A stretch of 24,811 bases of DNA from an uncultured Thermoleophilia bacterium (GTDB lineage Bacteria > Actinomycetota > Thermoleophilia > UBA2241): NCBI GenBank assembly GCA_964393265.1, contig CAYMTC010000001.1:1-24811 (forward strand), given 5' to 3'. Under the pieces are notes generated by a model, which ran no database searches, was not told where the DNA came from, and saw nothing but the letters and a program-made list of their open reading frames with translations. Made by a program: the position numbers and the translations under genes. Below are positions 3,421 to 24,784 of this stretch, piece by piece. Position 1 is the stretch's first letter; each line of letters starts with the position of its first letter.

Positions 3421-3627
3421 GTCTGTGGCGCCGCCTAGCGGCAACCCCTGGGCGAGCGCCCACGTGTGGCCGCCCATACTCCTGGGAAGAACGTGGACAG
3501 ATACAGTCCACTCTGTCGCTCAGACTTCTGCGGCACGAGTGCCCGGCGAGAGGCGATCATTGCGCACACCGGCGACCTCGGCAGACAGGCCGCAGATGGA
3601 CTGAGCGCTCGTCAGGGAGGTGACGAC

Positions 3628-4806
3628 ATGACGGGCGGCATCCGTGTGGCGCGCATCCTTGGCTTCGACATCTCCATCCACCCGTCGTGGTTCATCATCC
3701 TGGCTCTCGTCGTGTGGTCGTTGGCAGCAGGTACGCTGCCGGCGCTCTACGCCGACTGGAGTCAGGCCACCTACTGGATGGTAGCTGTCGTGGCCGCCCT
3801 GCTGCTGTTCGCATCCGTGTTGGTCCACGAGTTAGCCCACTCGGTAGTGGCCCGTAGGCAGGGCACTCCTGTGGCAGGTATCACGCTGTTCCTCTTGGGC
3901 GGCGTGGCAAGTCTGGAGCGCGAGGCGACCAGCCCTGGCCGCGAGGCTGTCATGGCAGGCGTGGGACCGCTCACCAGCCTCGTGCTGGGCGGTGCCTTCT
4001 GGGGCATCGGGCAGACGATCAGTGGGCCGGAGGTCGTGCGTGCTGTCCTGCTCTACCTGGGGCTCATCAACGCCATGCTGGCCGCGTTCAACTTGCTCCC
4101 CGCCTTCCCTCTCGACGGCGGGCGCGTCTTCCGCGCGGCGCTCTGGAGTTGGAAGAGGGACTACCTGGCGGCCACGCGCATCGCCACTCGGGTCACCCTG
4201 GTCATAGGGTCGGGATTCATCGCCTACGCGGCGTTCAGCTTCCTGTGGACTGGCTTGCTGGGTGGCCTCTGGATCGGCTTCATCGGGTTCATGCTCATGC
4301 AGACCGCACGAGGCTCCTACCGACAGACGCTGGTGCAGCAACGCCTCGATGGCGTCCCAGTGACCAGAGTCATGACGACGCCGGCGACCTGGGTGGCGCC
4401 TGGTACCAGCCTGCGGCGTGCCGGCGAACGGCTGGCCGACGCTGAGATCCCTTGCCTGCCGGTGGGCCAAGCGGACGAGGGCCTGGCCGGCGTCGTCTGC
4501 CTCACCGATCTGGAGCGACCGCTGCCGGACGGCGTGGGCTCCGTGAGCCCGGCACGCCGCGCTGTAGCCGACGTCATGACCACTACGGAGCACATGCCGA
4601 TCGTCTCGCCCCACGACTCAGCTGCCGAGGCGCTGCGCAGGATGACCGGTGCGCAGAGCGACCGTGCCGCGGTGCTAGACGGACGGGCCCTCGTGGGCAT
4701 GGTGGACCGCGGCACGCTGCTGCGCTACCTCCGTGAGACGTCGCAGCGCGAGGATGCGAGCTCTTCTCGCGACTCGCATCGAGAGACGCAACGGCGGGCC
4801 GCCTGA
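3628..4806 (+). CDS. Site-2 protease (M50 zinc metalloprotease) with two C-terminal CBS domains
   Basis: HELAH zinc motif, NLLPAFPLDGG motif, TM helices, CBS-like C-terminus (VTRVMT..., VADVMT...). ATG 3628 follows GGAGG; the ORF-track start at 3466 is not supported. Confidence 0.9.
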   Translation: MTGGIRVARILGFDISIHPSWFIILALVVWSLAAGTLPALYADWSQATYWMVAVVAALLLFASVLVHELAHSVVARRQGTPVAGITLFLLGGVASLEREATSPGREAVMAGVGPLTSLVLGGAFWGIGQTISGPEVVRAVLLYLGLINAMLAAFNLLPAFPLDGGRVFRAALWSWKRDYLAATRIATRVTLVIGSGFIAYAAFSFLWTGLLGGLWIGFIGFMLMQTARGSYRQTLVQQRLDGVPVTRVMTTPATWVAPGTSLRRAGERLADAEIPCLPVGQADEGLAGVVCLTDLERPLPDGVGSVSPARRAVADVMTTTEHMPIVSPHDSAAEALRRMTGAQSDRAAVLDGRALVGMVDRGTLLRYLRETSQREDASSSRDSHRETQRRAA

Positions 4807-4818
4807 CACCTGGACGCA

Positions 4819-4842
4819 GTGAGCCGGCGTCCGCCGGCTCAC
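4819..4842. terminator. Hairpin between convergent genes
   Basis: GTGAGCCGGCG-TC-CGCCGGCTCAC; overlaps the stop codon of the RCC1 gene. Confidence 0.65.
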
Positions 4843-6695: not shown

Positions 6696-6797
6696 CGTTC
6701 TCCGCGCCACAATGGCACGCCCGACCGACATGACACCCTCCCCCCAAGAGGCCCACCATGGCTGTCCCATGGCACAGCACGCTCTCTTACCTATGTC

Positions 6798-10235: not shown

Positions 10236-11372
10236 ATGTCATCAGCCAGTGAACCCCGCAAGGGGACTCGGCAGACCCGCCGACTCAAGGAACTCAAGGG
10301 ACTCCTGCGCACCTTCTCTGAGCTGGAGGGAGTCTCAGGAGCGGAACAGGACGTCGCGCAGGCGCTGAAGGACGTCTGCGCCCCCGTCGCCGACGAGGTG
10401 CGCACCGACGTCCTGGGGAACGTGATCGTCACTCGGCGCGGCCGGGGAGGCGCCGGCAAGCAGCCCGCGCCAGTCCTCATGATCGCGGCCCACATGGATG
10501 AGATCGGCGCCATGGTCAAGTACGTCGATGAGCATGGCTTCCTGCGATTCGTGCCCATCGGGGGCTGGTTCGACCAGACCATCCTCGGCCAGCGTGTCAT
10601 CGTGCACGGTACTCAAGGCCGCATAGTGGGCGTCATCGGCTCCAAACCGCCACACATCATGGACCCAGAAGAGCGCAAGAACACCATCAAGATCAAGGAC
10701 ATGTTCATCGATGTCGGAGCCACCGACGCAGCCGACGCAGCCACTCTCGGCGTCGAGATCGGCAGCCCCGTCACCATGGACCGGTCCCTGCGCGAGATGG
10801 CCCACGACTTCGTCACCGGCAAGGCGCTCGATGACCGCTCCGGCGTCGTCATGATGGTGGCCGCCTTGCAGCGGCTCCGCGACGAGGACATCGTCACGAC
10901 CGTGCATGCAGTCGGCACGGTCCAGGAGGAGGTGGGCCTCAAAGGCGCCCGCACCTCCGCGTTCGGCCTGGACCCGGACGTAGCCCTCGTCAGTGAGACC
11001 ACCATTCCAGGCGACCACCCCGAAGTATCCAAGGAGCAGCGCCACGTGGAGGTAGGCAAGGGCCCCGTGCTCACCGTCGCCGACGCGGACGGCAGGGGCG
11101 TCATCGTGCCGCGCACGGTCTTGAGCTGGCTGCGCGGCGCCGCGGATACCGTTGCCGTTCCCTACCAGCTGGACGTGGGCAGTGGCGGCACCACCGACGC
11201 CACCGCCATCCACCTCACGCGGAGCGGCATCCCGTCAGGTGTGATCAGCATCGCCACGCGCTACCTGCACTCGCCCGTCGAGGTCCTGTCACTGAAGGAC
11301 GTGGACCTGGGCGCCGAGCTCATAGCCCAAGCGGTGCGTACGGCCCACGAGCACTTCTCAGGGCGCAGCTGA
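10236..11372 (+). CDS. M42-family metallo-aminopeptidase (TET/FrvX-like)
   Basis: AAHMDEIG, KALDDR, QEEVGLKGA, GGTTDA and RYLHSPVE metal-binding motifs; SD GAGGAG. Confidence 0.93.
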   Translation: MSSASEPRKGTRQTRRLKELKGLLRTFSELEGVSGAEQDVAQALKDVCAPVADEVRTDVLGNVIVTRRGRGGAGKQPAPVLMIAAHMDEIGAMVKYVDEHGFLRFVPIGGWFDQTILGQRVIVHGTQGRIVGVIGSKPPHIMDPEERKNTIKIKDMFIDVGATDAADAATLGVEIGSPVTMDRSLREMAHDFVTGKALDDRSGVVMMVAALQRLRDEDIVTTVHAVGTVQEEVGLKGARTSAFGLDPDVALVSETTIPGDHPEVSKEQRHVEVGKGPVLTVADADGRGVIVPRTVLSWLRGAADTVAVPYQLDVGSGGTTDATAIHLTRSGIPSGVISIATRYLHSPVEVLSLKDVDLGAELIAQAVRTAHEHFSGRS

Positions 11373-11409: not shown

Positions 11410-12603
11410 CTAGCCCGCGCTGGACGGGGCGCCAGCGAGGTAGTCGCCCGCAGAGCCGCCTACCACCAAACGGCAGTAGGGCGTAGCGGGCGCGCCCGCC
11501 GGCCGGGCAGACGGGCCCGTGTCGTGGACCGGCACGTCCGTTGGCGTGGCCACCAGGCCCGTACGCTGGGAGAGCGCGTCCGCGGGCGTGACTGGCGTGC
11601 GCGTACGCTGGGCCGGCGCGTCCGCGGAGTCGCTGGGCACGCGCGGTACGACTCGTTCGAGCGTACCGCGGGCAAGTGCGGTCTCGCCATCCCGAAGCTG
11701 TTCGGCGAACCGCCCCCTGAAGGAGACGATGTCGCGCACATGGTCCACGGGCTCGCCTGACAGGAACGACACCGAGTCGATCCCGTAGCGACACGGCGTG
11801 AACAACGCATCGGCAGCGTCGGTCACGCGGGCGCGGATCTCTGCCGGGCCCAGGTTCTCTACCGACTCCGCGCCGAACGCGGCTGCGGCCTCTGACCGGA
11901 GCTTCACGAAGCGCACGAACACCGAACGGTCTTGGTACCGGCACTCGTTCACCTTACGAGCCTGGAGGCGGGCGAACTCGCGGGCGTCTAGAGGCGTCTC
12001 GGAGGAGTGCGCCTCATGGATGACGCCCAGGTGCTCGGGTCGCGGACGTGTGATGGGGCCATCATCCTCATCCAGCAGTCTCCTCAGCGCCGCCGCGACA
12101 GTGCGGCAGTGCTTGTCGCCGTACACCACCACGTCGATGTCCGAGGAGTCGTGGTGCAGCCCCACGAGGATGGACCCGGTGACTCCCAGACACGACAGCG
12201 GGACCTGGGCAGCACGCGCGATCGTCGTGAGGAGACCGAGGGTCGCCCTCTCGAGATGGTCCGCACGACCGTGACGCAGGAGGCCTTCCAGCCGCAGTCG
12301 CGGATCGTGGACGCGACTCACCCGCTCCCAAGGAACGGACTGGACCGTGGCAGCCAGCTCAGCGTCGTACGCGAGGTACAGGTCTCCGTGCGGACGGAGC
12401 AGGGCCTCTTGATCCCGGAAGCCGTACACGCGGCGGAAGCGTGTACCACCGCGCACACGATCACCTGAGGGGTCGGGAAGGTACCGGAGGTAGGCGACGG
12501 TGCGGTGCGGAGGGTGGACGTGGCCCTTCACGGTGAAGACCAGTTGGTCCGCCGTCTCGAGAGCGAAGCCCTCGATAGCCATATCGACACTTGCCTCAGT
12601 CAT
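11410..12603 (-). CDS. Archaeal-type predicted nucleotidyltransferase (COG1665-like); start uncertain (12639, 12603 or 12582)
   Basis: F-x-VKG-x-x-HP...AYLRY N-terminal motif; Pol-beta-type GVTGSILVG...SDIDVVVYG; C-terminal FTPCRY...VSFRGRFAEQ...ARGTLERV. Confidence 0.75.
   Translation of the reverse strand: MTEASVDMAIEGFALETADQLVFTVKGHVHPPHRTVAYLRYLPDPSGDRVRGGTRFRRVYGFRDQEALLRPHGDLYLAYDAELAATVQSVPWERVSRVHDPRLRLEGLLRHGRADHLERATLGLLTTIARAAQVPLSCLGVTGSILVGLHHDSSDIDVVVYGDKHCRTVAAALRRLLDEDDGPITRPRPEHLGVIHEAHSSETPLDAREFARLQARKVNECRYQDRSVFVRFVKLRSEAAAAFGAESVENLGPAEIRARVTDAADALFTPCRYGIDSVSFLSGEPVDHVRDIVSFRGRFAEQLRDGETALARGTLERVVPRVPSDSADAPAQRTRTPVTPADALSQRTGLVATPTDVPVHDTGPSARPAGAPATPYCRLVVGGSAGDYLAGAPSSAG
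11479..11646 (-). repeat. In-frame degenerate 42-bp tandem repeat (4 x 14 aa) inside the nucleotidyltransferase
   Basis: PRVPSDSADAPAQR / TRTPVTPADALSQR / TGLVATPTDVPVHD / TGPSARPAGAPATP; DNA CGTACGCTGGG...GCGCGTCCGCGG recurs at 11560 and 11602 (42-bp period). Confidence 0.75.
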
Positions 12604-12682
12604 GGCCGTGACAGGTTTGTGCCCTTGTCGAAGAGACATGTAAGCTGGGTGAAAGAGTCAGATAACGACAACGGCGGCTACC

Positions 12683-13393
12683 ATGCAGTTGCTGATCAGT
12701 CTGGTCCGCGAGGATGAGATCGAGCCCGCTGTCGCGGGCGGCGCCGACATCATCGACGTCAAGCAGCCTCGTGAAGGGTCTCTGGGCGCGGGCCTGCCGC
12801 ACGTCATTCGGCGCGCACGCGAGCTCACGCCGGCCCACATCCCCGTCAGCGCCGCCATCGGCGACATGCCCAATCTGCCAGGGACCGCCGCGCTGGCCGC
12901 CGCCGGCGCCGCGGACTGTGGCGTGCAGTACGTCAAGGTGGGGCTCATGGGCACGCGCACCGGCGCTGAAGCAGAGGTGTTGCTCAGCGAGGTGTGCCGC
13001 GCCGTGCATGACAAGGCGCCCACAGCCCGCGTCATGGCCACGGCTTACGCCGACGCTCGCTCCGTAGGCTCGCTGCCTCCCAGCGAGCTCCCTCAGGTCG
13101 CCTCCAAGGCGGGTGCGTACGGCTGCATGATCGACACCGCCCGCAAACAGGACGGTACGCTCCTCTCCATCATGCCGACCGCCCAGATAGCTCAGTTCAT
13201 CGCCGCCGCTCGCGAGCTCGGCCTGCTGTGCGCCCTGGCTGGGTCGCTGCATGCCGACGACATGCAGACGATCTGCGAGCTGCAGCCCGACGTCGTGGGC
13301 TTTCGCGGCGCCGCCTGTCGCGGCACCCGCGCGGACGGCACCGTGGACAGCGCGGCCGTCGCCCATCTCAAGCACCTCTGCGCCTGCCACTGA
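12683..13393 (+). CDS. mfnB: (5-formylfuran-3-yl)methyl phosphate synthase (4-HFC-P synthase; Orf22/DUF556)
   Basis: GGADIIDVKQPREGSLGA, VSAAIGD, YVKVGL, MIDTARK and LAGSL motifs. Confidence 0.93.
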   Translation: MQLLISLVREDEIEPAVAGGADIIDVKQPREGSLGAGLPHVIRRARELTPAHIPVSAAIGDMPNLPGTAALAAAGAADCGVQYVKVGLMGTRTGAEAEVLLSEVCRAVHDKAPTARVMATAYADARSVGSLPPSELPQVASKAGAYGCMIDTARKQDGTLLSIMPTAQIAQFIAAARELGLLCALAGSLHADDMQTICELQPDVVGFRGAACRGTRADGTVDSAAVAHLKHLCACH

Positions 13394-14027
13394 GCTCGGC
13401 GTCCCGCGCACTCAGTACCAGCTCCACAAGCTCGTGCGATGGCGCGCCCGCGACGATCCATGCGTCCACGGGCTGCGACTGCAACTGGTGCGCAAGGTAG
13501 GCGTCGATGACCCCCCGCCGCGCAAGACCGACCGCAGAATCTGCGTCCAGGCGCGCCGACGTGAGAGCCCCGCCCCTGGACGACGTCAGCGCGCTAGGGT
13601 GCTTGAGCAGCACCAGCCGCGACCTGGCGAGCGCCGCCACCCATGCTGCGATCGAGTCCGAGGTCACGTCCCAAGAGTGCGGCAGCGGGTCTTCGCGACG
13701 CAGAAGGTCGCCGGGCAGCAGGACTGGCACGCATCCCTTCTCGATGACCTCCTCGGCAGAGGCCAACTCGCGCACCACAGCACCTCGGACGAGGTCTGCC
13801 AACTCCAGACCGAATTGCTCCATGGCCGCCACGGCCATCCAGTGAGCCGCCTCGTCTGAGAAGCCGTCGCGCGCCTGCGCGGAGCGCACGGTGTCCGCGT
13901 ACACACCGCCGCCCGGCACCAGCAGCAGACCCCGCTGACCGCCCAATCGGCCCATCTCGCTGCACAGCGCACCAAGACCCGTGCCGGCGGCGAGGCTGCC
14001 CCCCACCTTGAGCACCATGTCGATCAT
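13368..14027 (-). CDS. mfnE: Amino-acid-kinase-family protein, furan phosphate kinase (Orf21)
   Basis: VLKVGGSL, VPGGGVYADTVR, AHWMAVAAMEQFG, LPHSWDVTSDSIAAWVA; ATG 14027 forms an ATGA overlap with the mfnF stop. Confidence 0.88.
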   Translation of the reverse strand: MIDMVLKVGGSLAAGTGLGALCSEMGRLGGQRGLLLVPGGGVYADTVRSAQARDGFSDEAAHWMAVAAMEQFGLELADLVRGAVVRELASAEEVIEKGCVPVLLPGDLLRREDPLPHSWDVTSDSIAAWVAALARSRLVLLKHPSALTSSRGGALTSARLDADSAVGLARRGVIDAYLAHQLQSQPVDAWIVAGAPSHELVELVLSARDAELSGRRRGA

Positions 14028-15076
14028 GCGTGTCCACCCAGGTCCTGGGCGAGCAGACACGCCACGGCCGCTGCGGGAAGAGCCACGGCCTGCGCCGTCT
14101 GCTCGCTCAGGACGGCGGCGGTCCGCATGTCCAGACGCCGAGCGGCCTCCTCCGCCAGAAAGGCTCCTGCGCCGGCTGGGACGACAGACCTGCTCGCGCC
14201 GTCGGGCAGGCGGGACAGGACCTGGAGCACGCCGTCACCGATGCGGTGCAGCTGACACTCCATGAGGTACCGCGCCATCTGCACGACGTCCGGCTCGGCG
14301 AGCATCTCAAGGTCGGCACAGACCAGCCGGGCCAGGCGGCCAGCCGCCTCACCAGGTGTGGTGCCGCGCCCGTCTGCCGTGGGACAGGTGTAGTCAGCAG
14401 CACTCAGCTTCCCGAGAAGGAGGTAGACGTCGGCCATGAGAGCGAAGTGCTCGGCCGCGACGCGTGTCATGCGTCCGCGCACGGGCACGACATCGGTGAG
14501 GGACTGTGGTTCGCTGCGCAGCACCCCGGTGTAGAGGAGCTCGCCAGAGCCGAGCCTGCCTGTGTCGTCGCGGCCCTCGTTCTGGACTCGGCCACCGCTG
14601 ATGGGGATGATGTCGGTGGTCGTGCTGCCCACATCCACCAGCAGGCAGTCGGGGTGATACTGCGCCACATACAGCGCCGACGCCAGCCAGTTGGTCGCGG
14701 CCAAGTCCAGCGGCCGCGCGCGCGCCACCTCGTTTGAGACGAACTCGCCGTTGATGCTGAGCGCCCGCGCATCTGCGCCGGGGAATGCCTCCCGCACCGC
14801 GTCCAGCACGGTGAGCACACCGTCTCGCTTGCAGGCGAACGCGTCCGAGAGCTCAGCGGTCATCGTCAACGCCATGACGTACGCATCGGCCAGCGCGAAG
14901 CGCTCAGCCACGTCGCGCAGCACGGCGGCCAGCCGTATCGGGTCGCGCCAGATCTCGAACGGCTCTACGGCGACCTGCACGACCTGGGCGGACCCATCCG
15001 TCCACACCACGTGAGCGGCCTTCGTATTGACCCCCCCTATGTCCCAACCCACCACATGGAGCGTGTCTGCTGTCAC
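14024..15076 (-). CDS. mfnF: Hydantoinase/oxoprolinase-like ASKHA protein of the H4MPT/MFR cluster (Orf9)
   Basis: GWDIGGVNTKAA, TMTAELSDAF, AATNWLASA, LVDVGSTTTDIIPI; GTGA overlap with the mfnD stop. Confidence 0.9.
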   Translation of the reverse strand: MTADTLHVVGWDIGGVNTKAAHVVWTDGSAQVVQVAVEPFEIWRDPIRLAAVLRDVAERFALADAYVMALTMTAELSDAFACKRDGVLTVLDAVREAFPGADARALSINGEFVSNEVARARPLDLAATNWLASALYVAQYHPDCLLVDVGSTTTDIIPISGGRVQNEGRDDTGRLGSGELLYTGVLRSEPQSLTDVVPVRGRMTRVAAEHFALMADVYLLLGKLSAADYTCPTADGRGTTPGEAAGRLARLVCADLEMLAEPDVVQMARYLMECQLHRIGDGVLQVLSRLPDGASRSVVPAGAGAFLAEEAARRLDMRTAAVLSEQTAQAVALPAAAVACLLAQDLGGHA

Positions 15077-16098
15077 CAGGGACCCGCCTTCTGGAACGGG
15101 ACGGGGTGCTGCGGCGAAGCGTCAGGCGGCAGCACCCCATCGACACAAGCGCGCCAGAGAGCCTCGCCGAGGTCGATGGACAACGCCTCACGAAGACCGA
15201 TGTAGGAGGTCGTGAGCCGTGGATTGACCTCTATGAGCTGGCATCCAGAGTCACTGACGACCATGTCGACACCTACGTAGCCACGCAGCCCCGGAAGCAG
15301 AGACACCGCCTGCCGGGCAAGTGAGAACGCCTCTTCGCGCCGCTCGTGTGCAATGCCGGCGACGCCGCCAGTGTACTCGCAGGGGATCCCGAAGTGCATG
15401 CGCTGCTCATTCATGCCCAACACCGAGGCTGCTCCATCGGCGACCAGCAGCGACACGCTGGCCGCGGTGCCCGCGACGTACTCCTGGACGAGCAGGTCCT
15501 CCCGCGATGGCTCGCAGACGTGCAGCGCCCGGGTCCACTCCGCAGCGTCTTGCACGAGACACACGCGCTCACACCCGGCGCCGGAGCGCGGTTTCACGAT
15601 GACTGGATAGGCGATCTCCTGAGCGACCGCGAGCACCTTGGGCGGCGCCACCAGTCGGGTAGCAGGTACCGGCAGGCCTGCGGCATGCAGAAGACCGTAC
15701 AACTGCCACTTGTCGGCAGCACGAGCCACAGCTCCCGGGGCACTGCCCAGCACGTGGACACCCGCCGCAGCCAGATCGCGGGTGACGCACTCAAGGACTC
15801 TCCCTCCCTCAGGCGCTATCAGGAGCGCAGCGCCGCAGGAACGGGCGACGTCGATCAGGCCTCCCGGATAGACTTGGGGCGAGAGCGGCACCACGCGGTC
15901 GGCTTGCACAGCTCCCAGGGGCAGCCGTCGGTCACAGGTCGTGACGATTGGCAGCCCGCCCCACGCGCGGAGGTCCTCTACCACTGCGCTCAGCAGCGCG
16001 AGGGCCTCCCCGCCTAGCGGCTGCGGCAGCTCCGGCTCTGGCCAGCCGCCGCCCACGACGTACTCGTGTACCAGCAGAGCCGACGGAGAGAGACGCAT
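15073..16098 (-). CDS. mfnD: ATP-grasp ligase, tyramine--L-glutamate ligase-like
   Basis: LLVHEYVVGGG, LIAPE, DKWQLY, KPRSGAGC, QEYVAGTAASVS, GYVGVD, IEVNPRLTTSYIGLR. Alternative starts 16107 and 16125. Confidence 0.8.
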   Translation of the reverse strand: MRLSPSALLVHEYVVGGGWPEPELPQPLGGEALALLSAVVEDLRAWGGLPIVTTCDRRLPLGAVQADRVVPLSPQVYPGGLIDVARSCGAALLIAPEGGRVLECVTRDLAAAGVHVLGSAPGAVARAADKWQLYGLLHAAGLPVPATRLVAPPKVLAVAQEIAYPVIVKPRSGAGCERVCLVQDAAEWTRALHVCEPSREDLLVQEYVAGTAASVSLLVADGAASVLGMNEQRMHFGIPCEYTGGVAGIAHERREEAFSLARQAVSLLPGLRGYVGVDMVVSDSGCQLIEVNPRLTTSYIGLREALSIDLGEALWRACVDGVLPPDASPQHPVPFQKAGPW

Positions 16099-16858
16099 GG
16101 AGTGCATCCCAGTCCTAGACCTCATGAACGGGGCCGTCGTCCACGGCCACCGCGGTGAGCGCCAAGGCTATCGGCCTGTGGTGAGTCACTTGTTGGACGG
16201 AGCCGACCCACTCGACGTCGCGACGGCGCTCCTGTCGGTGACCGGCACCAAGCGGCTGTACGTCGCCGACCTCGACGCGATCAGCCGGCGAGGCGACCAC
16301 TGCGCCGTGCTGCAGCGACTGAGAGACTCGCTCAGCGCTGACTTGCTGGTGGATGCCGGCAGCGGCCAGACGGAGGCGGCCAGACAGGTGCTCGACTCCG
16401 GAGCCACCTGCGTGGTAGTGGGCACCGAGACACTGCCGGACGTGGCCTCGTTGCAGCACATCCGCGAGCGTCTTGGCCACGAGAGAGTGCTGCTGAGTGT
16501 GGACACCACCACTCACGGTGTGCTGAGTCGCTGTGACGCACTGCGCGGGAGGTCGCCCTTGGACGTGCTGCGGCTGCTCGACGCGGCGTCGCTCGGCCAG
16601 GCCCTGGTCCTGCACCTCGACCGCGTGGGCACAGGCACAGGGCCGGCCCGCGACGACCTTCGTGCGGTACGGTCGGCCTACCCTCAGCTGCGCCTGGTGG
16701 CAGGCGGCGGCGTGCGCACGCCCGCTCACTTGGCTGAGCTGGCCGCGGCAGGGGTGGATGCCGTGCTGGTCGCCACCGCGCTGCACGAGGGCTGGATCAC
16801 GCGCGGCGACATCGAGCGCACAGCACGGGGCACCCCAGAGTTCACCAACGCGTCGTGA
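16097..16858 (+). CDS. HisA/HisF-related TIM-barrel protein (Orf17 family, furan cofactor biosynthesis)
   Basis: IPVLDLMNGAVVH...RQGYRPV, LYVADLDAI, LDRVGTGTG, VAGGGVR; GGAG 8 nt before ATG 16097. Confidence 0.88.
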   Translation: MECIPVLDLMNGAVVHGHRGERQGYRPVVSHLLDGADPLDVATALLSVTGTKRLYVADLDAISRRGDHCAVLQRLRDSLSADLLVDAGSGQTEAARQVLDSGATCVVVGTETLPDVASLQHIRERLGHERVLLSVDTTTHGVLSRCDALRGRSPLDVLRLLDAASLGQALVLHLDRVGTGTGPARDDLRAVRSAYPQLRLVAGGGVRTPAHLAELAAAGVDAVLVATALHEGWITRGDIERTARGTPEFTNAS

Positions 16859-17732
16859 GCTCTGGCACATCGGCCAGCATGCCCCCCTCTGTGAGAAAGA
16901 CGAACAGCGACGCGGCGATCAAGTCGGCCGTGGTGCCAGGGTTGAGCCGGTGTGCATCGTCCCGTAGCTCGTCGTCAAGACGCTGCACTTCTCGGCGGCC
17001 CAGCTCGGTGTGCAGGCCGCCTGCGTCGAGCACTTCGCAGGCACGCCGCGAGACGTGCGCAGCTTCACGTTCCCCCAGCTTGCGCGCGATGAGGGTGTCG
17101 GGCACCTCAGAGAGGATCTGCAGGAACGCCGTCGTGATGGCCACCGACAGTGAGTCGCCGCGCTGCCACGAGTGCGACAGGGCCTGGGCTCCGCACTGGA
17201 ACGTGATCTGGTAGTCGGTGAGGTACTCACGAGCGATGCTGTCCCTATCCCGTGCACTGCGCATGGCCTCGAGCAAGCTCACGTCCACTTGCGCGCCAGC
17301 GACGTCGTGCTCCTGGACCCGACCCAACCCGCCGGGCTGCGCCATCGCGATGGCCGCATAGGCGCTGCGGGCATCCTCCACCGACAGACCAGCCAGCACG
17401 CCACGCAGTGCGTCACGTAGGCCGTGCTGAGAAGCGTCCATGGCTGCGGCTTTGGCCAGCGGGGCCAGGAGCAGCACGATGCCAAGGTTGGTGTTCGTGG
17501 CAGACACCTGACGGGTGGCAGCCACGGCTTCTCGGATGGTCTGGCCCACGCCGCGCTCGCCGGCGGCGGCGAAGGGAGGCCCGATAGCCGCCGCGCTCGT
17601 CAGGAAGTCCAGGACACCGACGTCGGCGAACCGCGCGCGAGGTGACACGTTGCCAGGCTTGTGCGCCATGACCTCGAACTGACAGGAGAGCTGCACCGCG
17701 AGCGCGATCTCTTGCCCCTGCAGTGGCCTCAT
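16842..17732 (-). CDS. citG: CitG/triphosphoribosyl-dephospho-CoA synthase-like protein (Orf7 family)
   Basis: EVMAHKPGNV, TNTNLGIVLL, PDTLIARKLG, NPGTTADLIAA; ATGA overlap with the orf5 stop. Confidence 0.87.
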   Translation of the reverse strand: MRPLQGQEIALAVQLSCQFEVMAHKPGNVSPRARFADVGVLDFLTSAAAIGPPFAAAGERGVGQTIREAVAATRQVSATNTNLGIVLLLAPLAKAAAMDASQHGLRDALRGVLAGLSVEDARSAYAAIAMAQPGGLGRVQEHDVAGAQVDVSLLEAMRSARDRDSIAREYLTDYQITFQCGAQALSHSWQRGDSLSVAITTAFLQILSEVPDTLIARKLGEREAAHVSRRACEVLDAGGLHTELGRREVQRLDDELRDDAHRLNPGTTADLIAASLFVFLTEGGMLADVPELTTRW

Positions 17733-18601
17733 CCGTACACATCCACGACGTACTGGACCAGCTCCTCCGCAGCATCGATGCCCGTGGCGCCCTTGAGAGC
17801 TCGCCAGCCCGGTATGGAGTTCACCTCCAGGACACGGTAGACGTCGTCCTCGCCAGGAAGGATGTCCACGCCGGCGTACTCGGCGCCCACCGTACGGGCC
17901 GCCCGCAGGCTGAGGTCGCAGAGGTGGTCGTCCGGATCGAGCGGGATGCTGCGCGCCCCTTGCGCTGCATTGGTCTTCCAGCTGGTGCCGCGCCGTATCA
18001 TGGCGCCGACGACGCGCGGACCGATGACGAACACGCGGATGTCCTCGTCCCGATGGGGGACGAACGCCTGCAAGTAGTACACGTACCGTCCCAACTCCAG
18101 GGCCCGGAAGGCGCGATACGCGGAGTCCGGGTCCGAGACGCGGACCATTCCCTTGCCCTCGGAGCCGAAGAGGGGCTTGAGCACGACGTCGCCACCGAGC
18201 TCCTCGAACGCTGCCAGAGCGTCTTCGAAGCGCTCGACGACCACCACTGGCGGTGTGGGAAGGCCCTCGGCGGCCAGCAGAGCTGTCGTGTAGTACTTGT
18301 CAACGCCGCACTCGATGGACCTGGCCGAGTTGATCACCGGCGTGCCGTTGCGCTCGAGCTCCCGTAGCGCGTCCATGCGGAAGATGACCTGCTCTAGGGA
18401 CCCTGTGGGGATGGCCCGTACGAACACCACGTCCATCCCGTCGAGCGACACGCCGTCGGCGTGCAGGCTCGGCGTGTCGCCGGCCCGTGCGACAAGGCGT
18501 GTGACTGGTACGACCTCGGTGGCTATGCCTTGGGCGCGGAGCGCCCCGAGCAGGCTCTCAGTGTGCCAGCCGCCGTTCTGTCCGAGGATCGCGGCTTTCA
18601 A
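17729..18601 (-). CDS. RimK-family alpha-L-glutamate ligase (Orf5/MyfB or MptN-like)
   Basis: VRAIPTGSLEQVIFRMDAL, DKYYT, VLKPLFGSEGKG, DIRVFV, WKTNAAQG, LEVNSIPGW; TTGA overlap with the mch stop. Confidence 0.9.
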   Translation of the reverse strand: MKAAILGQNGGWHTESLLGALRAQGIATEVVPVTRLVARAGDTPSLHADGVSLDGMDVVFVRAIPTGSLEQVIFRMDALRELERNGTPVINSARSIECGVDKYYTTALLAAEGLPTPPVVVVERFEDALAAFEELGGDVVLKPLFGSEGKGMVRVSDPDSAYRAFRALELGRYVYYLQAFVPHRDEDIRVFVIGPRVVGAMIRRGTSWKTNAAQGARSIPLDPDDHLCDLSLRAARTVGAEYAGVDILPGEDDVYRVLEVNSIPGWRALKGATGIDAAEELVQYVVDVYG

Positions 18602-19569
18602 CTGAGCAGAGAACGCTCGAGGAGATCCGCGTCAACGACGCCCGCCTGGACCGTACGGCCGCTGAGACTACTGGTGAGGAAGACCTCCGCCGGGCTGAAC
18701 AGCAGGGGGTCGATCTTGTAGAAGTCGCCACCGTAACGTTCGAACAGCTCTTTGAAGGGCACACCATGGTCGCGGGACGCCGCTGCAGGCAGCCGGTCGA
18801 TGACCGACGCGATCGCGTCGTCCTCGGCCTGCACCGTGTACCAGGAGCGCCCGCCGTAGAGGACGGCGTCGTTGGTGCGTCCTATCGCCGACAGGTCGTC
18901 GCGCGCCACAGGCGCCATGGGACACACCCCGAAGCCGGAGCGCACTGTGCCGATGTCAAAGCCTACCTCGTGCATCTTGTGCAGACCTGTCTCCACGATG
19001 CGCGCGGCGATCTGTACCGACCCCACGAGGCTTGCTGTGGGAGCCACCAGCAGCAGCAGTGAGCCCGCCGGCACGCCGCACTTCTTAGCCACCCAGGCGA
19101 CCGCCTCGTCGGTGGGCAGCTGCCGCGACTCGAGCGTGAGCACCGCTCGCGAGGCCGTGTCCTTGTATCCCAGGTCCTCGAAGAGCTGCTCGCCACAGTA
19201 CAGAGCGCGGGCCGGCCCCGAGCCCATGGCGAAGTAGCCCGGCGTCGACTCACTGCGCGGGACGTCGATGGCCCAGCCCGCGTACTGCGACGCCATGCAC
19301 GCCAGTACAGGCTGTCGTACGTCCACCTCGACACCCGGTAGCACCAGCGCGTCGAGTCGGACCTCGCACAGCCGGACGTCACCCAGGCCGCCGAGGCACA
19401 CCTCCGCGAACAGACGGCCCGCTTCCAGTGAGCCCGGCACCTCGACGCCGGCGTCCACGACCGTGGCGCCGCTGGCGAGCTGGTGCACTTGTAGAGCCAA
19501 GGCTTCTGCATCCTCGACCATGCGGTCGACGATGACGGCTGCTCGATCATTCAGACTGATCACGGACAA
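18598..19569 (-). CDS. mch: Methenyl-H4MPT cyclohydrolase
   Basis: MGSGPARAL, LTLES, APTASLVGSVQIAARIVETGLHK, GRTNDAVLYGG, KIDPLLFSPA; TTG 19569 (or GTG 19563) after GAGGGGAG. The ORF-track extension to 19776 is not protein-like. Confidence 0.96.
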   Translation of the reverse strand: MSVISLNDRAAVIVDRMVEDAEALALQVHQLASGATVVDAGVEVPGSLEAGRLFAEVCLGGLGDVRLCEVRLDALVLPGVEVDVRQPVLACMASQYAGWAIDVPRSESTPGYFAMGSGPARALYCGEQLFEDLGYKDTASRAVLTLESRQLPTDEAVAWVAKKCGVPAGSLLLLVAPTASLVGSVQIAARIVETGLHKMHEVGFDIGTVRSGFGVCPMAPVARDDLSAIGRTNDAVLYGGRSWYTVQAEDDAIASVIDRLPAAASRDHGVPFKELFERYGGDFYKIDPLLFSPAEVFLTSSLSGRTVQAGVVDADLLERSLLS

Positions 19570-19813
19570 GCATCTCCCCTCTGCGGCCTGTGCCGCGGTC
19601 GTCCGCAGAGCACTCGAGGTCGCCCTAAGGACCCTCCGCCAGGCCGTCGCATTCCAGGTCGGCTCAGTGCCGGCACGAAGCGGCGCACGATGGCTGGAGG
19701 CCATTGACGTGCGCACCGCCAGACCGGTGACATGGTGACAGGGCCGCCAGCGACGCGTTGATGGCGCGCACATCACCGCGCACGCGTGGCCAGCACACCC
19801 TGCGCCTCGCTCG

Positions 19814-20698
19814 CTAGCTGAGCAGCGCGTGGAGCGGGAACTGGTACTGCCCCAGCTCCCCGCCGTAGTTGCCCGCCGAGATGCGGGTGACTCCGGGGCG
19901 ACATGCGGCTCTCATGCCCACGCGCATGGCATCTCCGACCGCATCCTCGGTGAGGCCGTCGACCACGATCTCGAGCACGGCGTTCTCATCGGGGCCGAGC
20001 GGCGAGTCCACCTGCCCCTTGAGCGTGGGGCAGTAGAACGTGTTGCTGGACACGTGCTGACCCTTGTACATCGACGAGACCTTACTCCCGCTGCGCACGA
20101 CGCCTCCCGGGAAGGGCATGATGACGCCTGGGACACTGCGCATGGCCTCCACAGCCGCCTCGGCAGCGCCCAGAGCCTCAGCGATCCCGGTGGCCATGAT
20201 GAAGAAGTTGCCGCCGCCCACTGCCTTACACACCCCGAAGCTCTCGTCGATGACGAACTCCCCGTCCATCACCGGCACGCGCCACAGGCGCCTGCCGTCG
20301 ACCAGCTTGCTGCGCTGGAAGCCGTCGCCGAAGTACCGGAGCTTGCCGCCGACCTTGAGACGCTCGTCGGCCTGCAGACCGTTGTAGCAGGCCGACGTGG
20401 CCGAGGTCATGATGCTCTGCCCGATGCGCGCCAGCAGCTGCTGCTCCATGCTCTTGCGAGAGGTGGTGAAGATGAGGACGGCCACGCCCGGCCTGCCGTC
20501 TGGCGTCGCCTCGTCGGGGGGCAGCGTGTTGACACCGGCCTCGCAGCCGCAGCCGATGATGGACGTGGCAAAGCCAGTCGCCGAGGCCGCCGCGGTCTGA
20601 GCCCACGAGAGAGTGTCTGCTGTGACCACGAGCCGGGCACCCCACATGCCAAAGGCTTCCGCAAAGGTGTCTACGATCTCCACACCGTCGATCTTCAT
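19814..20698 (-). CDS. ftr: Formylmethanofuran--H4MPT N-formyltransferase (Ftr/FhcD)
   Basis: GVEIVDTFAEAF, GFATSIIGCGCEAG, TPDGRPG, RYFGDGFQ, PVMDGEF, GGGNF, FPGGVVRSGSK, YCPTL, EIVVDG, ISAGNYGG. Confidence 0.96.
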   Translation of the reverse strand: MKIDGVEIVDTFAEAFGMWGARLVVTADTLSWAQTAAASATGFATSIIGCGCEAGVNTLPPDEATPDGRPGVAVLIFTTSRKSMEQQLLARIGQSIMTSATSACYNGLQADERLKVGGKLRYFGDGFQRSKLVDGRRLWRVPVMDGEFVIDESFGVCKAVGGGNFFIMATGIAEALGAAEAAVEAMRSVPGVIMPFPGGVVRSGSKVSSMYKGQHVSSNTFYCPTLKGQVDSPLGPDENAVLEIVVDGLTEDAVGDAMRVGMRAACRPGVTRISAGNYGGELGQYQFPLHALLS

Positions 20699-22161
20699 CA
20701 GGTCCCGGCTCCTTTCCCAGAGACTGTGCCGTCGTACGCCGTCACGCCGCCCGCTTTGGCTGCCTGAGCAGGGTCTGTGTCCGCGGCACTACTCGATACT
20801 TCTCGTGGCGCATCGTCAAGGTACCCCCAACGGAGACCCGACTCTTGCGTGTACCTCTTGCCAAGAAGGACGGCAAGCGCGGCCCGCTCCAGTTCGCGCC
20901 CCATGTAGAACGCGTGCCCTGGGTCGGAGATCTCCAGCTGCTCGAAGAGACGCTGGGGGTCTGTACCACTGACGAATGTGTCACGATTGAACACGTACAC
21001 ACGCTGCGCGTCGGCGAAGATGCGGTAGTGCCGGTCCCGTACCCTGCTCTGCATGTCGCGGAGTTCGACCTCCGTGTACGGACGAAACGGCACATCCTTG
21101 AGCGCTATCAGGCGGTCATCGATGGACTTGGGCAGGACGCTGTTGGTGCGCGCGTAGTACATGAGCCTGCGCGCGACGTCGAGTTCCCGTACGGCGCCGC
21201 GACACCAGCTGATCACCTCGGTCGTAAGGACGTAGTCGATCTGCAGCTCGGTGAACACGCCGGCGATGACAGCGTTCACGCCATGGCTGTCGGCGTCGAG
21301 GAGCTCGGTGAGGTTGCCCACGCCCATGAGCATCTCCGCCGTAGGGTACCGGCGACGCACCTCCTGGAAACGGACCACCGACTCGGTGAAGCCCATGCCC
21401 AGCGGATCGAGGATGGGATCGAGGACGTAGGGCGCACCAAGCTCCGCCACCGTCTGCACGTTCCGCTCGAGCGAGTCGACGCCCTCACCGAAGTCCGGGA
21501 CCACCACGACCTTGCAGTGCAGGTGGGGAACGACATCGATGTTCTCGGAGTTGACGCTCAACACGAGGTCTACCCCGGCGTCGTCCGCCTCCCTGATCGT
21601 GTCACTATGGAACGTGTCGATACTGACGACGAAGCCGCGCTCCTTGAGTGCCGCGACCGCGTCTCCGACGCCCACGAACGGCTCCATAGGCGGACATCCG
21701 AGGTCGATGATGTCGGCGCCCTGCGCGCGGTAGCGCTCGGCCTCCGCGAGGATGCTTTCGAGAGACAGGTGCCACGCCTCGACGATCTCGGCAAGCAGCT
21801 TGATCTTGTACGCGCCGTAGCCGTGGAGCTGGGGCTCCTGGCCGTAGAACCGCGGCAGGTCGCGGAGGTCCTTTGGACCGCGTACCACGGGGACGCCGAC
21901 CTGTCGCTCGATGACGGACAGATCGCCACGACAGAGACCCGGGATCACGACCAGCTCGCAGCCGCGCGCGTCGTGCAGACGCCGCGCTATCCACTCCGTG
22001 CGCATGAGCGCAGCGACCGAGCCATTGAGGACGGCTGTCTCGTATGGGAAGTCCGGGGCCAGGCGTTCGAGCGTGAGCTGGAGCGCCGCAGCAGCCAGCC
22101 GGCCGGTGACGAAGAGCGTCTTTGGCACTGCCTCGTCGCTTTGGCTCAAGGGGCCAGCCAC
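20698..22161 (-). CDS. Dihydropteroate-synthase-like protein of methanopterin biosynthesis (Orf20; DUF6513 + pterin-binding barrel + C-terminal DUF4346-like)
   Basis: LFVTGRLA, VAALM, GPKDLRDLP, GADIIDLGC, LDPILDP, MLMGVGNLTELLDADS, TTEV, HAFYMGRELERA; TGATG coupling to ftr. Alternative start GTG 22128. Confidence 0.88.
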   Translation of the reverse strand: MAGPLSQSDEAVPKTLFVTGRLAAAALQLTLERLAPDFPYETAVLNGSVAALMRTEWIARRLHDARGCELVVIPGLCRGDLSVIERQVGVPVVRGPKDLRDLPRFYGQEPQLHGYGAYKIKLLAEIVEAWHLSLESILAEAERYRAQGADIIDLGCPPMEPFVGVGDAVAALKERGFVVSIDTFHSDTIREADDAGVDLVLSVNSENIDVVPHLHCKVVVVPDFGEGVDSLERNVQTVAELGAPYVLDPILDPLGMGFTESVVRFQEVRRRYPTAEMLMGVGNLTELLDADSHGVNAVIAGVFTELQIDYVLTTEVISWCRGAVRELDVARRLMYYARTNSVLPKSIDDRLIALKDVPFRPYTEVELRDMQSRVRDRHYRIFADAQRVYVFNRDTFVSGTDPQRLFEQLEISDPGHAFYMGRELERAALAVLLGKRYTQESGLRWGYLDDAPREVSSSAADTDPAQAAKAGGVTAYDGTVSGKGAGT

Positions 22162-23123
22162 TCTTCCAGCGTGATGTGCCGCTCTACCGGCGCCCCGCCG
22201 GCGAGCTCGTGACGGATGTCGCCGAGGGTGCCGTAGCGCTCGGCGAAGGCGTTGTGGTCGTGGATGCCTTCGAAGTTCTCCTGACGAGCGATGATGAAGT
22301 CTTCGTCAGGGAGGTTGGGGTAGGCAGCCACGGCAAGGCGCAGCATCTCGCGCACAGCGTCCTCGACGAAGCGCGGATTGCGGTGCGCCTTGTCCACCAC
22401 GTAGAGCTCGTCCGGACGCTTGAGCAGCTCGTAGATCTCCGAGCTCATCGACTGCTCGACGAGCTTGACGAGGTCCTCGGCGCGGAGCGACTCGCGCGAG
22501 CCCACTAGCAACGTGCCGCGTCCTCGCTGGTTATGCGAGGCCACAGGCACGACACTGAGGATGCAGCTGATCTGGTCCTCTGTGAACCCCTCTTGCAGCA
22601 GCTGCTCGCGGGACTGCGCCCGTACCATGTCCTGAGCGCAAGGACACACCGTGAGCCCGTTGACCTCGACACCGACCACCAGCCGTGTGGCATGGGGAGT
22701 GGCGGCAGCGATGCCGACGAGCGTGTAGAGCTGCTCGGTGGGACGATCCGTCACGGGAGTGCGGCGCACCAGAGGGGATTGGGTCTTGATCCGTACCTCG
22801 GCGCGATACGCCGCCTGCGTAGCCACGATCTGCTCTGCCATGCGGCTGGCCAGCGACTCGATGTCGGGGAACGGCCTGCGCGTGAAACCCTCGGCAAGCC
22901 CTTCCACCACCTCGCTGAAACGCGACATGTGGACACCGGCATACTCGGGACTGAGATCAGCGAAGAGATCGATGCTGGCGTAGAAGAGCTGAGGCTTGTT
23001 GCCGGCATTGATCGAGATGATGCGACGTAGATCGGTGACGCCCGCGCGGCTCAGTGCCACCGGCACAGCCGGCCGCGCATTCTGTGTGTCTCTGAGAGTC
23101 ATCTGCGGAGTGCTCTGTTCCAT
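22146..23123 (-). CDS. mptA: GTP cyclohydrolase, archaeal MptA type (FolE2/MptA family)
   Basis: GVHMSRF, CPCAQ followed by a long helical insert, then SHNQRGRG, YELLKRPDE, NPRFVEDAVR, ENFEGIHDHNAFA. Confidence 0.88.
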   Translation of the reverse strand: MEQSTPQMTLRDTQNARPAVPVALSRAGVTDLRRIISINAGNKPQLFYASIDLFADLSPEYAGVHMSRFSEVVEGLAEGFTRRPFPDIESLASRMAEQIVATQAAYRAEVRIKTQSPLVRRTPVTDRPTEQLYTLVGIAAATPHATRLVVGVEVNGLTVCPCAQDMVRAQSREQLLQEGFTEDQISCILSVVPVASHNQRGRGTLLVGSRESLRAEDLVKLVEQSMSSEIYELLKRPDELYVVDKAHRNPRFVEDAVREMLRLAVAAYPNLPDEDFIIARQENFEGIHDHNAFAERYGTLGDIRHELAGGAPVERHITLEEWLAP

Positions 23124-23130
23124 CGCCCGC

Positions 23131-23613
23131 CTACTTGCCTGTGCTCGCGAGGGCCTCGGTACACACGAGGTGACCGTAAGCGACCGCGCAGCTGCCGAAC
23201 AACAGATCCATGTCAGTGCGCCGTATCACGGCTTTCGCTAAGTCGGACTGCCGGGACTCGGTGGGTACGATATCTCTGCCTGACTCGATGGCCACGCCGC
23301 TGTTCATCCACCCGTCCCGCGTCGTACAGCACCGGCTGTATCGGGGGAAGCCGTGCGAAGGCGTGGGGGCCTTTGACCCGGCGTCGCTCTGGTCGACAGA
23401 GACCGAGATCTTGGCGTCCGCATTGACAGCCTCCGCCACTTTGGCGGCTTCCACCAGGGTAGTGTAGCCCATCTTGGAGTGCGCGCACTCCGTGATCGGC
23501 GACCCGGCTACGGTGCCACCTGTGGCCGAGGCCAGACCGTGCTCACGGCCGCTGTCCAGGTCGACACGCTGCTCACGACCGCGCCCGGCGACCGGCCTGA
23601 GCCGATGGCTCAC
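23131..23613 (-). CDS. Hypothetical protein, 160 aa, no recognised family
   Basis: AGGAGGT SD (23625-23619) 5 nt before GTG 23613; stop lies 7 nt before the mptA ATG; fills the operon slot exactly. Confidence 0.55.
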   Translation of the reverse strand: MSHRLRPVAGRGREQRVDLDSGREHGLASATGGTVAGSPITECAHSKMGYTTLVEAAKVAEAVNADAKISVSVDQSDAGSKAPTPSHGFPRYSRCCTTRDGWMNSGVAIESGRDIVPTESRQSDLAKAVIRRTDMDLLFGSCAVAYGHLVCTEALASTGK

Positions 23614-24784
23614 GAGCCACCTCCTCTCGCTGCTCGATCTCGGCGTAGACAGCCGCCACCTGGTCAAAGAGGTCGCGCATACATGCCGCGCGGCCGTCGC
23701 CATGGGCGAGGACCGTGCAGACGGGATGGCCGGGCTTGAAGATCTGCGCCGGCCGCGGTACGTCACGCAGGCCACGGAGCAGCCAGTGGTCCGTGTCCGG
23801 CGCGGCACTCACCCGTCGCGCAAAGACGACACCCTTAGCGTGACAGCCAGCCGCTGGCCAGGCCGGAACCGCCTCGGGAAGCCTGCCCTCCAGCGCCTCC
23901 AGGTGGAGCTTGAAGACGTTCACCCCGTAGGCGCGTTCTATGAGCTCCAGGGAGGCTGAAGGCCGAGGGTTGACCTCGACCAGGTGAGCCTCGACGTCGC
24001 CATCCGACAGCGGCGTGACGACCAGGTCGAGACCGTTGAGCCCCACCAGCCCGAACCGCGCGGTAAGGAGCTGTGCCATGTGTGCCACGCGCTCGTAGAG
24101 TGCGTCGCCAGCGGCGGCCACGGTCGGCGTGGGACCCAGCGCGAGCGGCAAGACATTGCCACACCACGCGAAGCCGCTCGCGCCCAGATCGTGCCGGCCC
24201 AGGAGCTGTTCCGTGAGGCCAAGCAGCACGCAGTCGCGTCCGTCGGCGACAAAGGCCGCGGAGGCCGCCACGCCCTCTATACGCGCCTGCAAGAAGTGGT
24301 CGCCGTCGATGGGCTCCCCACGCCACGGTCGTACTCCGTGGCCGCCGCCACTGCGGATCCGCTTGCGCAGCCAGACACGTCCGTCAGCGGCCTGCGACTC
24401 CTCGCCCGAGAGGAGGGTGGGCGGGTAGGCGATCCCCACCTCGCCGCAGAAGCGCCGCAGGACACGCTGATCGCGCACCTGTTCGAGCGTCGCCGCGGCG
24501 TTGCCCCGCACCCTGCGGTGCTGGGCAAGTCGCCGCACGGCTTGCGGATGGTTCTCAAGATTGGCGCCGTAGACGACTGCGTCAGCAGGGATGCGCAGCG
24601 CTGCCTCGACCAACCCGTCGGCTGTCATGGGCAACGCAAGGTCTCGAGGCAGCGCGTAGCTCTCTGCCACGCGTTCCTGATCACGGTCGCCGAAGAAGTC
24701 GGCGGCGGCGGCACGTACCCCGCCTGCCGCCGCCGACTCGGCGATCATCCGCGTGCTGACGCCGATGAGAAGGACGCGGTCTAC
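23573..24784 (-). CDS. ATP-grasp carboligase of the OrfY/MyfA (COG2232-like) family
   Basis: RVLLIGVSTR...DFFGDRD, GANLENHP, KRIRSGGGHGV, LQARIEG..AS, GLNGLD, VEVNPRPSASLE, GHPVCTV. The conserved N-terminus lies upstream of ATG 24748; the only SD-supported position is GTA 24784. Confidence 0.85.
   Translation of the reverse strand, partial: VDRVLLIGVSTRMIAESAAAGGVRAAAADFFGDRDQERVAESYALPRDLALPMTADGLVEAALRIPADAVVYGANLENHPQAVRRLAQHRRVRGNAAATLEQVRDQRVLRRFCGEVGIAYPPTLLSGEESQAADGRVWLRKRIRSGGGHGVRPWRGEPIDGDHFLQARIEGVAASAAFVADGRDCVLLGLTEQLLGRHDLGASGFAWCGNVLPLALGPTPTVAAAGDALYERVAHMAQLLTARFGLVGLNGLDLVVTPLSDGDVEAHLVEVNPRPSASLELIERAYGVNVFKLHLEALEGRLPEAVPAWPAAGCHAKGVVFARRVSAAPDTDHWLLRGLRDVPRPAQIFKPGHPVCTVLAHGDGRAACMRDLFDQVAAVYAEIEQREEVAREPSAQAGRRARS

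Follow-up and report, generated by a model that had tools for sequence, protein, structure and literature searches.

The closest described counterparts of the locus studied here are the 'archaeal-like' tetrahydromethanopterin (H4MPT) and methylofuran islands of Proteobacteria, which share its gene order (PMC5020050, PMC3615186). Orf17, one of the last methanofuran/methylofuran biosynthesis enzymes without an assigned reaction, was shown by deletion and complementation to be indispensable for methylofuran synthesis in M. extorquens PA1; OrfY and Orf5 of the same pathway are the glutamate ligases MyfA and MyfB, and Orf1 is an MfnD homologue (PMC8141765). The stretch analyzed here (the window) covers bases 1–24,811 of a contig 27,980 bases long, from a metagenome-assembled genome (MAG) of an uncultured Thermoleophilia bacterium (2.09 Mb, 343 contigs, 83% complete, 67% G+C). 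It carries a combined methanofuran and H4MPT cluster that extends from approximately position 12.7 kb to the window end. In this cluster, orf17 lies on the plus strand between minus-strand genes, and it overlaps mfnD at its start and orf7 at its end. The reading we prefer, with a probability of roughly 0.6, takes orf17 for the ancestral divergent partner of the mfnD-mfnF-mfnE operon in a region that has lost every spacer and would be expressed as three transcription units.

In the proteobacterial islands, the blocks 'orf17, then orf1(mfnD)-orf9(mfnF)...' and 'mch-orfY/orf5-orf7-fae, then orf17' hold the same genes in the same order, with orf17 likewise on the opposite strand (gene names follow PMC8141765 and PMC5020050; annotated examples are NZ_CP054618, NC_020548, NZ_CP020372 and NZ_CP104969). 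Azospirillum and Azoarcus share a CATG between the two starts exactly as the window does, and Azospirillum also has a tail overlap of 22 nt. The window differs from these islands in that no fae gene lies between orf7 and orf17, the start overlap, counted from the mfnD start conserved in the clade, is 11 nt and the tail overlap is 17 nt. Its host is a high-GC MAG, probably of the Actinomycetota, and few genomes of that phylum have the cluster (5 of 401). The gene arrangement itself is thus already known, and no new mechanism is demonstrated here. We know of no study of the expression consequences of the orf17 island layout. The elements of the two junctions are as follows.

15073–16107, minus strand: mfnD-like (Orf1-type) ATP-grasp ligase (ATP-grasp_3, preATP-grasp_3), from the ATG predicted to be conserved in the clade; alternative starts at 16098 and 16125
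16085–16088, plus strand: Shine-Dalgarno GGAG of orf17, within the first mfnD codons; GGAG or GGGAG at the same place in relatives
16096–16099, no strand assigned: palindrome CATG, with the ATG of orf17 and a candidate ATG of mfnD (16098–16096)
16097–16858, plus strand: orf17, HisA/HisF-related TIM-barrel protein of the Orf17/MJ0703 type, 253 aa
16113–16116, minus strand: Shine-Dalgarno-like AGGA for the mfnD start at 16107, spacer 5 nt, within orf17 codons 6–7
16835–16865, plus strand: inverted repeat over both stop codons (16835–16845 with 16855–16865)
16842–16858, no strand assigned: stop regions of orf17 and orf7, overlapping tail to tail by 17 nt
16842–17732, minus strand: orf7, CitG-like triphosphoribosyl-dephospho-CoA synthase family (PF01874, E 4e-70)

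An earlier sequence-only reading of the window had placed the CATG, the start codons, the GGAG and the stops at these positions, and all of its coordinates are correct. The plus-strand ATG of orf17 (16097–16099) follows the GGAG at 16085–16088 with a spacer of 8 nt. The minus-strand ATG in the same palindrome is in frame with the ATP-grasp open reading frame (ORF), and more in-frame ATGs are found at 16107 and 16125. These are the three ATGs that preserve the first strand of MfnD and, as the earlier reading had claimed for the canonical starts, all of them overlap orf17. The next canonical start, GTG 16056, would delete the conserved first strand LLVHEY, which all relatives keep. The overlap measures 11 nt from 16107 and 2 nt if the CATG is used, so that the genes overlap either way. 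At the other end, the orf17 stop TGA (16856–16858) and the orf7 stop (TCA at 16842–16844 in plus-strand reading) bear out the claimed 17-nt overlap. With overlaps at both ends there is indeed no intergenic DNA on either side of orf17. As read from the sequence, orf17 and mfnD are a divergent pair in which each coding sequence crosses its partner's start codon, and the ribosome-binding sites are interleaved. A Ser-Pro or Leu-Pro recurs before the MfnD first strand in many lineages because the GGAG of orf17 sits in these mfnD codons. No class of gene overlap is rarer than the divergent one, to which 2 of 663 overlapping pairs belong in E. coli (PMC4161906); this rarity makes the conservation of the pair notable.

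The plus-strand orf17 is a genuine gene. Its product is a full-length His_biosynth (β/α)8 barrel (PF00977, E 2.4e-36, residues 4–234). The best NCBIfam match is TIGR00734 (hisAF_rel), aligned over residues 1–234 with 116.2 bits, below the cut-off of 179.85; no genome of the phylum (401 genomes) reaches this cut-off. The best PDB matches are HisF and HisA chains, all distant, and the closest named homologues come from Actinomycetota MAGs. A separate HisA-like paralogue with 31% identity is located on another contig of the same genome, and a scan of the genome contigs with the single orf17 protein returned only an unrelated HisA-like match. Methanofuran or H4MPT pathway genes adjoin orf17 in 62 of 88 loci. 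The N-terminus MxxIPVLDL (P5, V6 and D8, with Asp8 near-invariant) is kept even in homologues with as little as 36% identity. This supports 16097 as the correct start, and the database gene call of 244 aa from ATG 16124, which cuts off MxxIPVLD with Asp8, is too short. Many orf17 homologues are also listed at 244 aa and not at 253 aa.

The MfnD-like protein matches ATP-grasp_3 (PF02655, E 7e-38) and the pre-ATP-grasp domain (PF18301, E 1e-8). Against NF040722 (MfnD_Meth) it scores 96 bits (cut-off 400) over residues 209–316 only, which falls short of an equivalog assignment. This match is partial and below the cut-off, and we therefore use the name 'MfnD-like'.

The survey of orf17 orientation in homologous clusters that the sequence-only reading had suggested covered 88 non-redundant orf17 loci. 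A pathway gene upstream of orf17 runs opposite to it in 60 of 62 cases (33 mfnD, 20 mfnB, 7 mfnF), and one downstream does so in 31 of 32 (20 orf7, 5 fae, 3 RimK-like, 2 mfnD, 1 mch). Both neighbors are opposite in 26 of the 28 loci in which both are known. This is far beyond chance. The complete wedge, with mfnF-mfnD on one strand, orf17 on the other and orf7 plus a RimK-like gene on the first strand again, is present in a genome of the same family (G013, 56% Orf17 identity), in two genomes of the same class, in long contigs from ENA, JGI, NCBI and Logan assemblies and in many of 80 metagenome loci. It is also found on RefSeq-annotated plasmids of Azospirillum oryzae, Azoarcus sp. KH32C, Ca. 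Thiodictyon syntrophicum (enrichment-derived) and Phyllobacterium zundukense, which span the Alpha-, Beta- and Gammaproteobacteria (Thiodictyon being the gammaproteobacterium). In Azospirillum and Azoarcus, the NCBI annotation itself contains the 2-nt start overlap (ATP-grasp gene end 6002, orf17 start 6001), and the sequence there is CATG. Judged by these comparisons, the layout is very old and has been maintained across bacterial phyla. Within the phylum, the distribution is patchy: orf17 homologues are restricted to 4 of 41 close relatives and to 5 of the 401 genomes, a pattern that repeated loss or lateral transfer could produce.

In low-GC loci, orf17 is divergent from mfnB-mfnD-mfnF over a spacer of approximately 135 nt. 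What has been conserved is hence the divergent transcription itself, and the orf17-mfn pairing may be older than the bacterial islands. Eight low-GC loci (L042, L029, L035, L053, L061, L066, L028 and L056) have a minus-strand ORF of about 245–250 aa upstream of orf17, which ends about 85–380 nt from it (about 135 nt in five loci); it was confirmed as mfnB in L042 and L029. Two other low-GC loci, L050 and L054, in which RadA adjoins orf17, are probably archaeal. In two relatives the mfnD, mfnF or RimK-like genes were called in pieces (L093, 1137–2388 and 4624–4905; L095/L100, 4633–5357 and 5925–6977), for example as 140 + 279 aa or 70 + 180 aa, which points to frameshifts, pseudogenes or assembly errors.

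For the 5' junction, about 28 distinct loci were compared in which mfnD adjoins orf17 and is divergent from it. CATG occurs in 12 of these; L008, L011, L012, L017, L019, L022–L025, L034 and L043 share this junction with the window. In L017 and L023, the ATG within the CATG is the sole mfnD start that retains the first strand; L004, L022 and L034 keep a second, lower candidate. The closest relatives of the window (L003, L007, L013, L014 and L016; also L018, L093, L094 and L096) have an orf17 that starts with GTG, and their mfnD ATG lies at orf17 nucleotides 9–11. Position by position, their MfnD N-terminal tails align with the form of the window that starts at 16107 (MASTSALPSAILVHEY versus MHSMRLSPSALLVHEY). 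The CATG of the window differs from the CGTG of the relatives by one transition, which changes the orf17 start from GTG to ATG and Thr4 of MfnD to Met together. In lineages beyond the CATG group and the group with the 11-nt overlap, orf17 and mfnD are separated by gaps of 1–135 nt.

From this alignment we infer that the mfnD start conserved in the clade of the window is 16107, with an 11-nt overlap with orf17. The shared CATG would then probably be incidental in this lineage, a by-product of the GTG-to-ATG change in orf17. Thus, of the earlier claim that both genes start on one CATG, the palindrome stands, and its use by mfnD does not fit the relatives, where the start corresponds to 16107; the minus-strand ATG of the CATG is probably non-functional in the window. 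The AGGA upstream of 16107 occurs in relatives only where Val6 of orf17 is encoded by GTC and is AGCA or AGAA elsewhere; a GAGG is conserved 12 nt upstream. As a main mfnD start, 16125 was rejected, as it has no Shine-Dalgarno sequence and the ATG is missing in L004 and L093. The leaderless signal TANNNT was not found at −12 to −7 of the orf17 or mfnD start. A hairpin around the Shine-Dalgarno sequence and start of orf17, predicted with RNAalifold in relatives, was also discarded; it shows little covariation, and the window breaks 3 of its 7 pairs.

The 3' junction is similarly well kept within the clade. L003, L007, L013, L014, L016 and L018 reproduce the 17-nt overlap exactly, and overlapping gene coordinates together with a shared stop spacing point to the same geometry in L093 and L094. 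In other lineages the tails overlap by 11, 22–23 or 53–108 nt, or are separated by short gaps. The inverted repeat CCAGAGTTCAC / GTGAGCTCTGG (11 pairs, 9-nt loop) spans both stop codons of the window and is a possible 3' hairpin of the orf17 mRNA. The relatives retain 5–9 pairs only, so that the hairpin counts as weak evidence.

In the reading we prefer, all spacer DNA on both sides of orf17 has been lost in the window lineage, where the two start regions interlock. A second minus-strand operon for H4MPT (...mch, the RimK-like ligase and orf7) converges on the 3' end of orf17. This would give three transcription units, with the orf17 promoter within mfnD and the mfnD promoter within orf17. Because there is no intergenic DNA on either side, transcripts of the opposite strands are expected to overlap, and promoters and terminators would fall in coding DNA. 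Complementarity would be expected between the orf17 and mfnD mRNAs in their 5' portions, and between the orf17 and orf7 mRNAs in their 3' portions. The mutual regulation that the sequence-only reading saw as built in would be a possible further effect. Read-through from orf7 may contribute in the clade of the window, where the spacer is absent.

Three lines of evidence favor separate, crossed promoters over one read-through mRNA. The first is the low-GC loci, in which the pair is spaced. The second is Azoarcus KH32C, which keeps the CATG-sharing pair and has only plus-strand genes beyond orf17; without a minus-strand operon upstream, mfnD cannot rely on read-through there. The third is the gap between fae and orf17 in two proteobacteria, which contains GC-rich hairpins that lack a U-tract: −108.6 kcal/mol (z = −9.0) in Ca. 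Thiodictyon (L097, 5700–5849) and −53.2 kcal/mol (z = −4.2) in Phyllobacterium (L098, 5709–5828). These are likely terminators or 3' stabilizers. The sequence-only reading had left the choice between read-through and crossed promoters open, and it is the second option that Azoarcus and the hairpins after fae support better. Its description of orf17 as a gene 'inside the operon' holds for the opposite-strand wedge; as a framing it is less apt, in that orf17 appears to be the conserved divergent partner of the mfn operon.

Several observations count against this reading. Pattern scans of the window, L011, L012, L097 and L098 found no σ70-like promoter, and no intrinsic terminator beyond one weak terminator-like match in the gap past orf17 of L012. 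There is no excess conservation of synonymous sites at the 5' ends, where embedded promoters would lie; a peak of synonymous conservation at orf17 codons 53–66 reflects preferred codons at invariant residues. The clade of the window has no hairpin-bearing gap after orf7, so that read-through into the antisense of orf17 may occur there. The mfnD start, whether 16107 or 16098, was placed by alignment alone.

The strongest alternative is a non-contiguous operon, in which a single minus-strand mRNA would run from the H4MPT genes through orf7, the antisense of orf17, mfnD, mfnF and mfnE. The orf17 mRNA would be complementary over its full length to the middle of this mRNA, with mutual RNA regulation, for example by RNase III. 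We regard it as possible but rather doubtful. The absence of a spacer or recognizable terminator between orf7 and mfnD in the clade of the window speaks for it, as do the tight packing of the flanking minus-strand genes, with overlaps of 4 nt, and a wedge geometry like that of cases in S. aureus (PMC11034616, PMC7154746). However, the unit that is conserved is the divergent orf17/mfn pair, which occurs without an upstream minus-strand operon in Azoarcus and the low-GC loci, and strong hairpins follow fae in two proteobacteria. Such an mRNA would moreover contain 762 nt that are untranslated or only accidentally open, which we would expect to face Rho termination, and in the window it would have to pass the 11-pair hairpin over the stop codons.

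A variant of read-through arises from the antisense frame of orf17. Two further elements are needed here.

16115–16870, minus strand: shadow ORF X, 251 aa, in codon register with orf17 on the antisense strand, not regarded as protein-coding
16115–16117, plus strand: rare leucine codon CTA, orf17 codon 7; on the minus strand a TAG 7 nt upstream of the mfnD ATG at 16107

As a protein, X was rejected, since it has no family match, is interrupted by 4–24 stops in low-GC relatives and imposes no raised synonymous constraint on orf17. CTA is found at codon 7 in 11 of 15 clade members, against a clade usage of 2%, and the remaining CTAs are all singletons; unlike it, the wobble bases of codons 4–6 vary freely. 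In the variant, X would be translated on the read-through mRNA as a sequence-indifferent spacer, or bridge ORF, closed by the conserved TAG at 16117–16115, which we consider improbable. Its supposed role, to guard the minus-strand mRNA from polarity and to couple mfnD to orf7, is just as improbable. A stop codon is the simplest element that would constrain only that CTA base while nearby wobble sites vary. CTA and TCA codons otherwise number 1/503 in orf17 (13 clade loci) compared with 46/2067 in six minus-strand neighbors at equal G+C at third codon positions (p ~7e-4). In L017 and L095, which lack the CTA, our reading of the alignment places an alternative X-frame TGA shortly inside mfnD. 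On the other side, the depletion of CTA and TCA is unspecific, with 0/239 in the DHPS-like gene and 0/95 in DUF1464, and it is absent in other high-GC lineages (6/467 versus 30/1501, p = 0.43). The proposal that selection keeps X open thus failed both controls, other minus-strand genes and other high-GC lineages. X is also broken by the 4–24 stops in low-GC relatives, its start is not positionally conserved (CAT at His230 in 8 of 15, which is unremarkable), and the idea was formed after the data had been seen. The conservation of CTA at codon 7, as aligned here, stands. If true, a bridge ORF would let an opposite-strand gene sit within an operon without breaking transcription–translation coupling.

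It is very unlikely that the starts are mis-chosen and the overlap is not real, with mfnD starting at GTG 16056 or orf17 at ATG 16124 and a short spacer between them. The 244-aa database call begins at 16124, gene callers picked non-overlapping starts in several relatives, and the Pfam ATP-grasp domains start at residue 60 of the longest MfnD form. The price of these starts is the IPVLD motif with Asp8 in orf17, where the TIGR00734 alignment begins at residue 1, and the LLVHEY strand in MfnD, which all relatives retain. In addition, the sole canonical start in L017 and L023 overlaps, and the NCBI pipeline annotated the 2-nt overlap in two isolates. Gene callers systematically shorten orf17 or mfnD to escape the head-to-head overlap. 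Finally, an assembly artefact or a recent local inversion, a concern raised by the sequence-only reading and understandable for a fragmented MAG of 343 contigs and 83% completeness, can be dismissed, as dozens of independent assemblies and closed plasmids from cultured members of three proteobacterial classes have the same orientation.

The other genes of the cluster are as follows.

22146–23123 (23123–22146), minus strand: mptA
20698–22161 (22161–20698), minus strand: DHPS-like DUF6513 protein
19814–20698 (20698–19814), minus strand: ftr/fhcD
18598–19776, minus strand: mch, methenyl-H4MPT cyclohydrolase, longest ORF (TIGR03120, E 1.6e-117)
17729–18601, minus strand: RimK/MptN-like glutamate ligase, overlaps orf7 by 4 nt (RimK; NF040720, E 2e-73, below the cut-off)
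14024–15076, minus strand: mfnF-like gene for an H4MPT-linked C1 pathway protein (TIGR03123), overlaps mfnD by 4 nt
13368–14060, minus strand: mfnE-like gene with an amino-acid-kinase fold (PF00696)
12683–13393, plus strand: mfnB, 4-(hydroxymethyl)-2-furancarboxaldehyde phosphate (4-HFC-P) synthase (PF04476, E 3e-74)

The cluster thus has two plus-strand genes, orf17 and mfnB. The latter converges on the mfnE-like gene with an overlap of 26 nt, and the same 26 nt are seen in L007, L099 and L101. On its other side, mfnB is divergent from a minus-strand gene of 409 aa (11410–12639, weak nucleotidyltransferase match), with about 43 nt between them. A 391-aa ATP-grasp_3 protein (23573–24748, minus strand) at the far end of the cluster brings the number of ATP-grasp ligases in the cluster to three. 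Elsewhere in the window, a 643-aa RCC1-repeat protein with a bacterial Ig-like domain (4839–6770, minus strand) is unrelated to the cofactor cluster, and neither an M50 peptidase with CBS domains (3466–4806) nor an M42 aminopeptidase (10236–11372) is cofactor-related.

The orf17/mfnD pair, whose start regions interlock in many bacteria, is one of few divergent gene overlaps conserved across phyla. Its layout predicts an obligatory antisense overlap between mRNAs of one pathway, and such a consequence for expression is plausible from the gene arrangement. A deletion or insertion in orf17 or mfnD would also damage the ribosome-binding site of the partner and, probably, the partner's promoter. 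This damage to the partner matters for reading the phenotypes of orf17 and orf1 knock-outs.

Three classes of known arrangement invite comparison. In the non-contiguous operons of S. aureus (for example menE-menC...ytkD), an opposite-strand gene likewise sits among co-directional, related genes with scant spacer (PMC7154746, PMC11034616), and orf17 too is an opposite-strand gene between co-directional genes. That class is defined by a spanning transcript, whereas the present case is known from its genes alone, and the comparison of loci favors separate units. Furthermore, the embedded orf17 belongs to the same pathway as its neighbors and is not an antagonist. In the excludons of Listeria, divergent genes have long 5' or 3' untranslated regions that overlap as antisense RNAs. 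The orf17/mfnD pair is divergent as well, and its transcripts would be complementary at the 5' ends given the zero spacer. This overlap would come from coding-embedded signals and not from a long untranslated region, and no opposing functions are evident. The third class, short head-to-head overlaps in bacteria, is closest in geometry: the starts likewise overlap by 2–11 nt, and each ribosome-binding site lies in the coding sequence of the partner. Such overlaps are rare and often annotation errors, whereas that of orf17 and mfnD is conserved across phyla, with both N-termini conserved.

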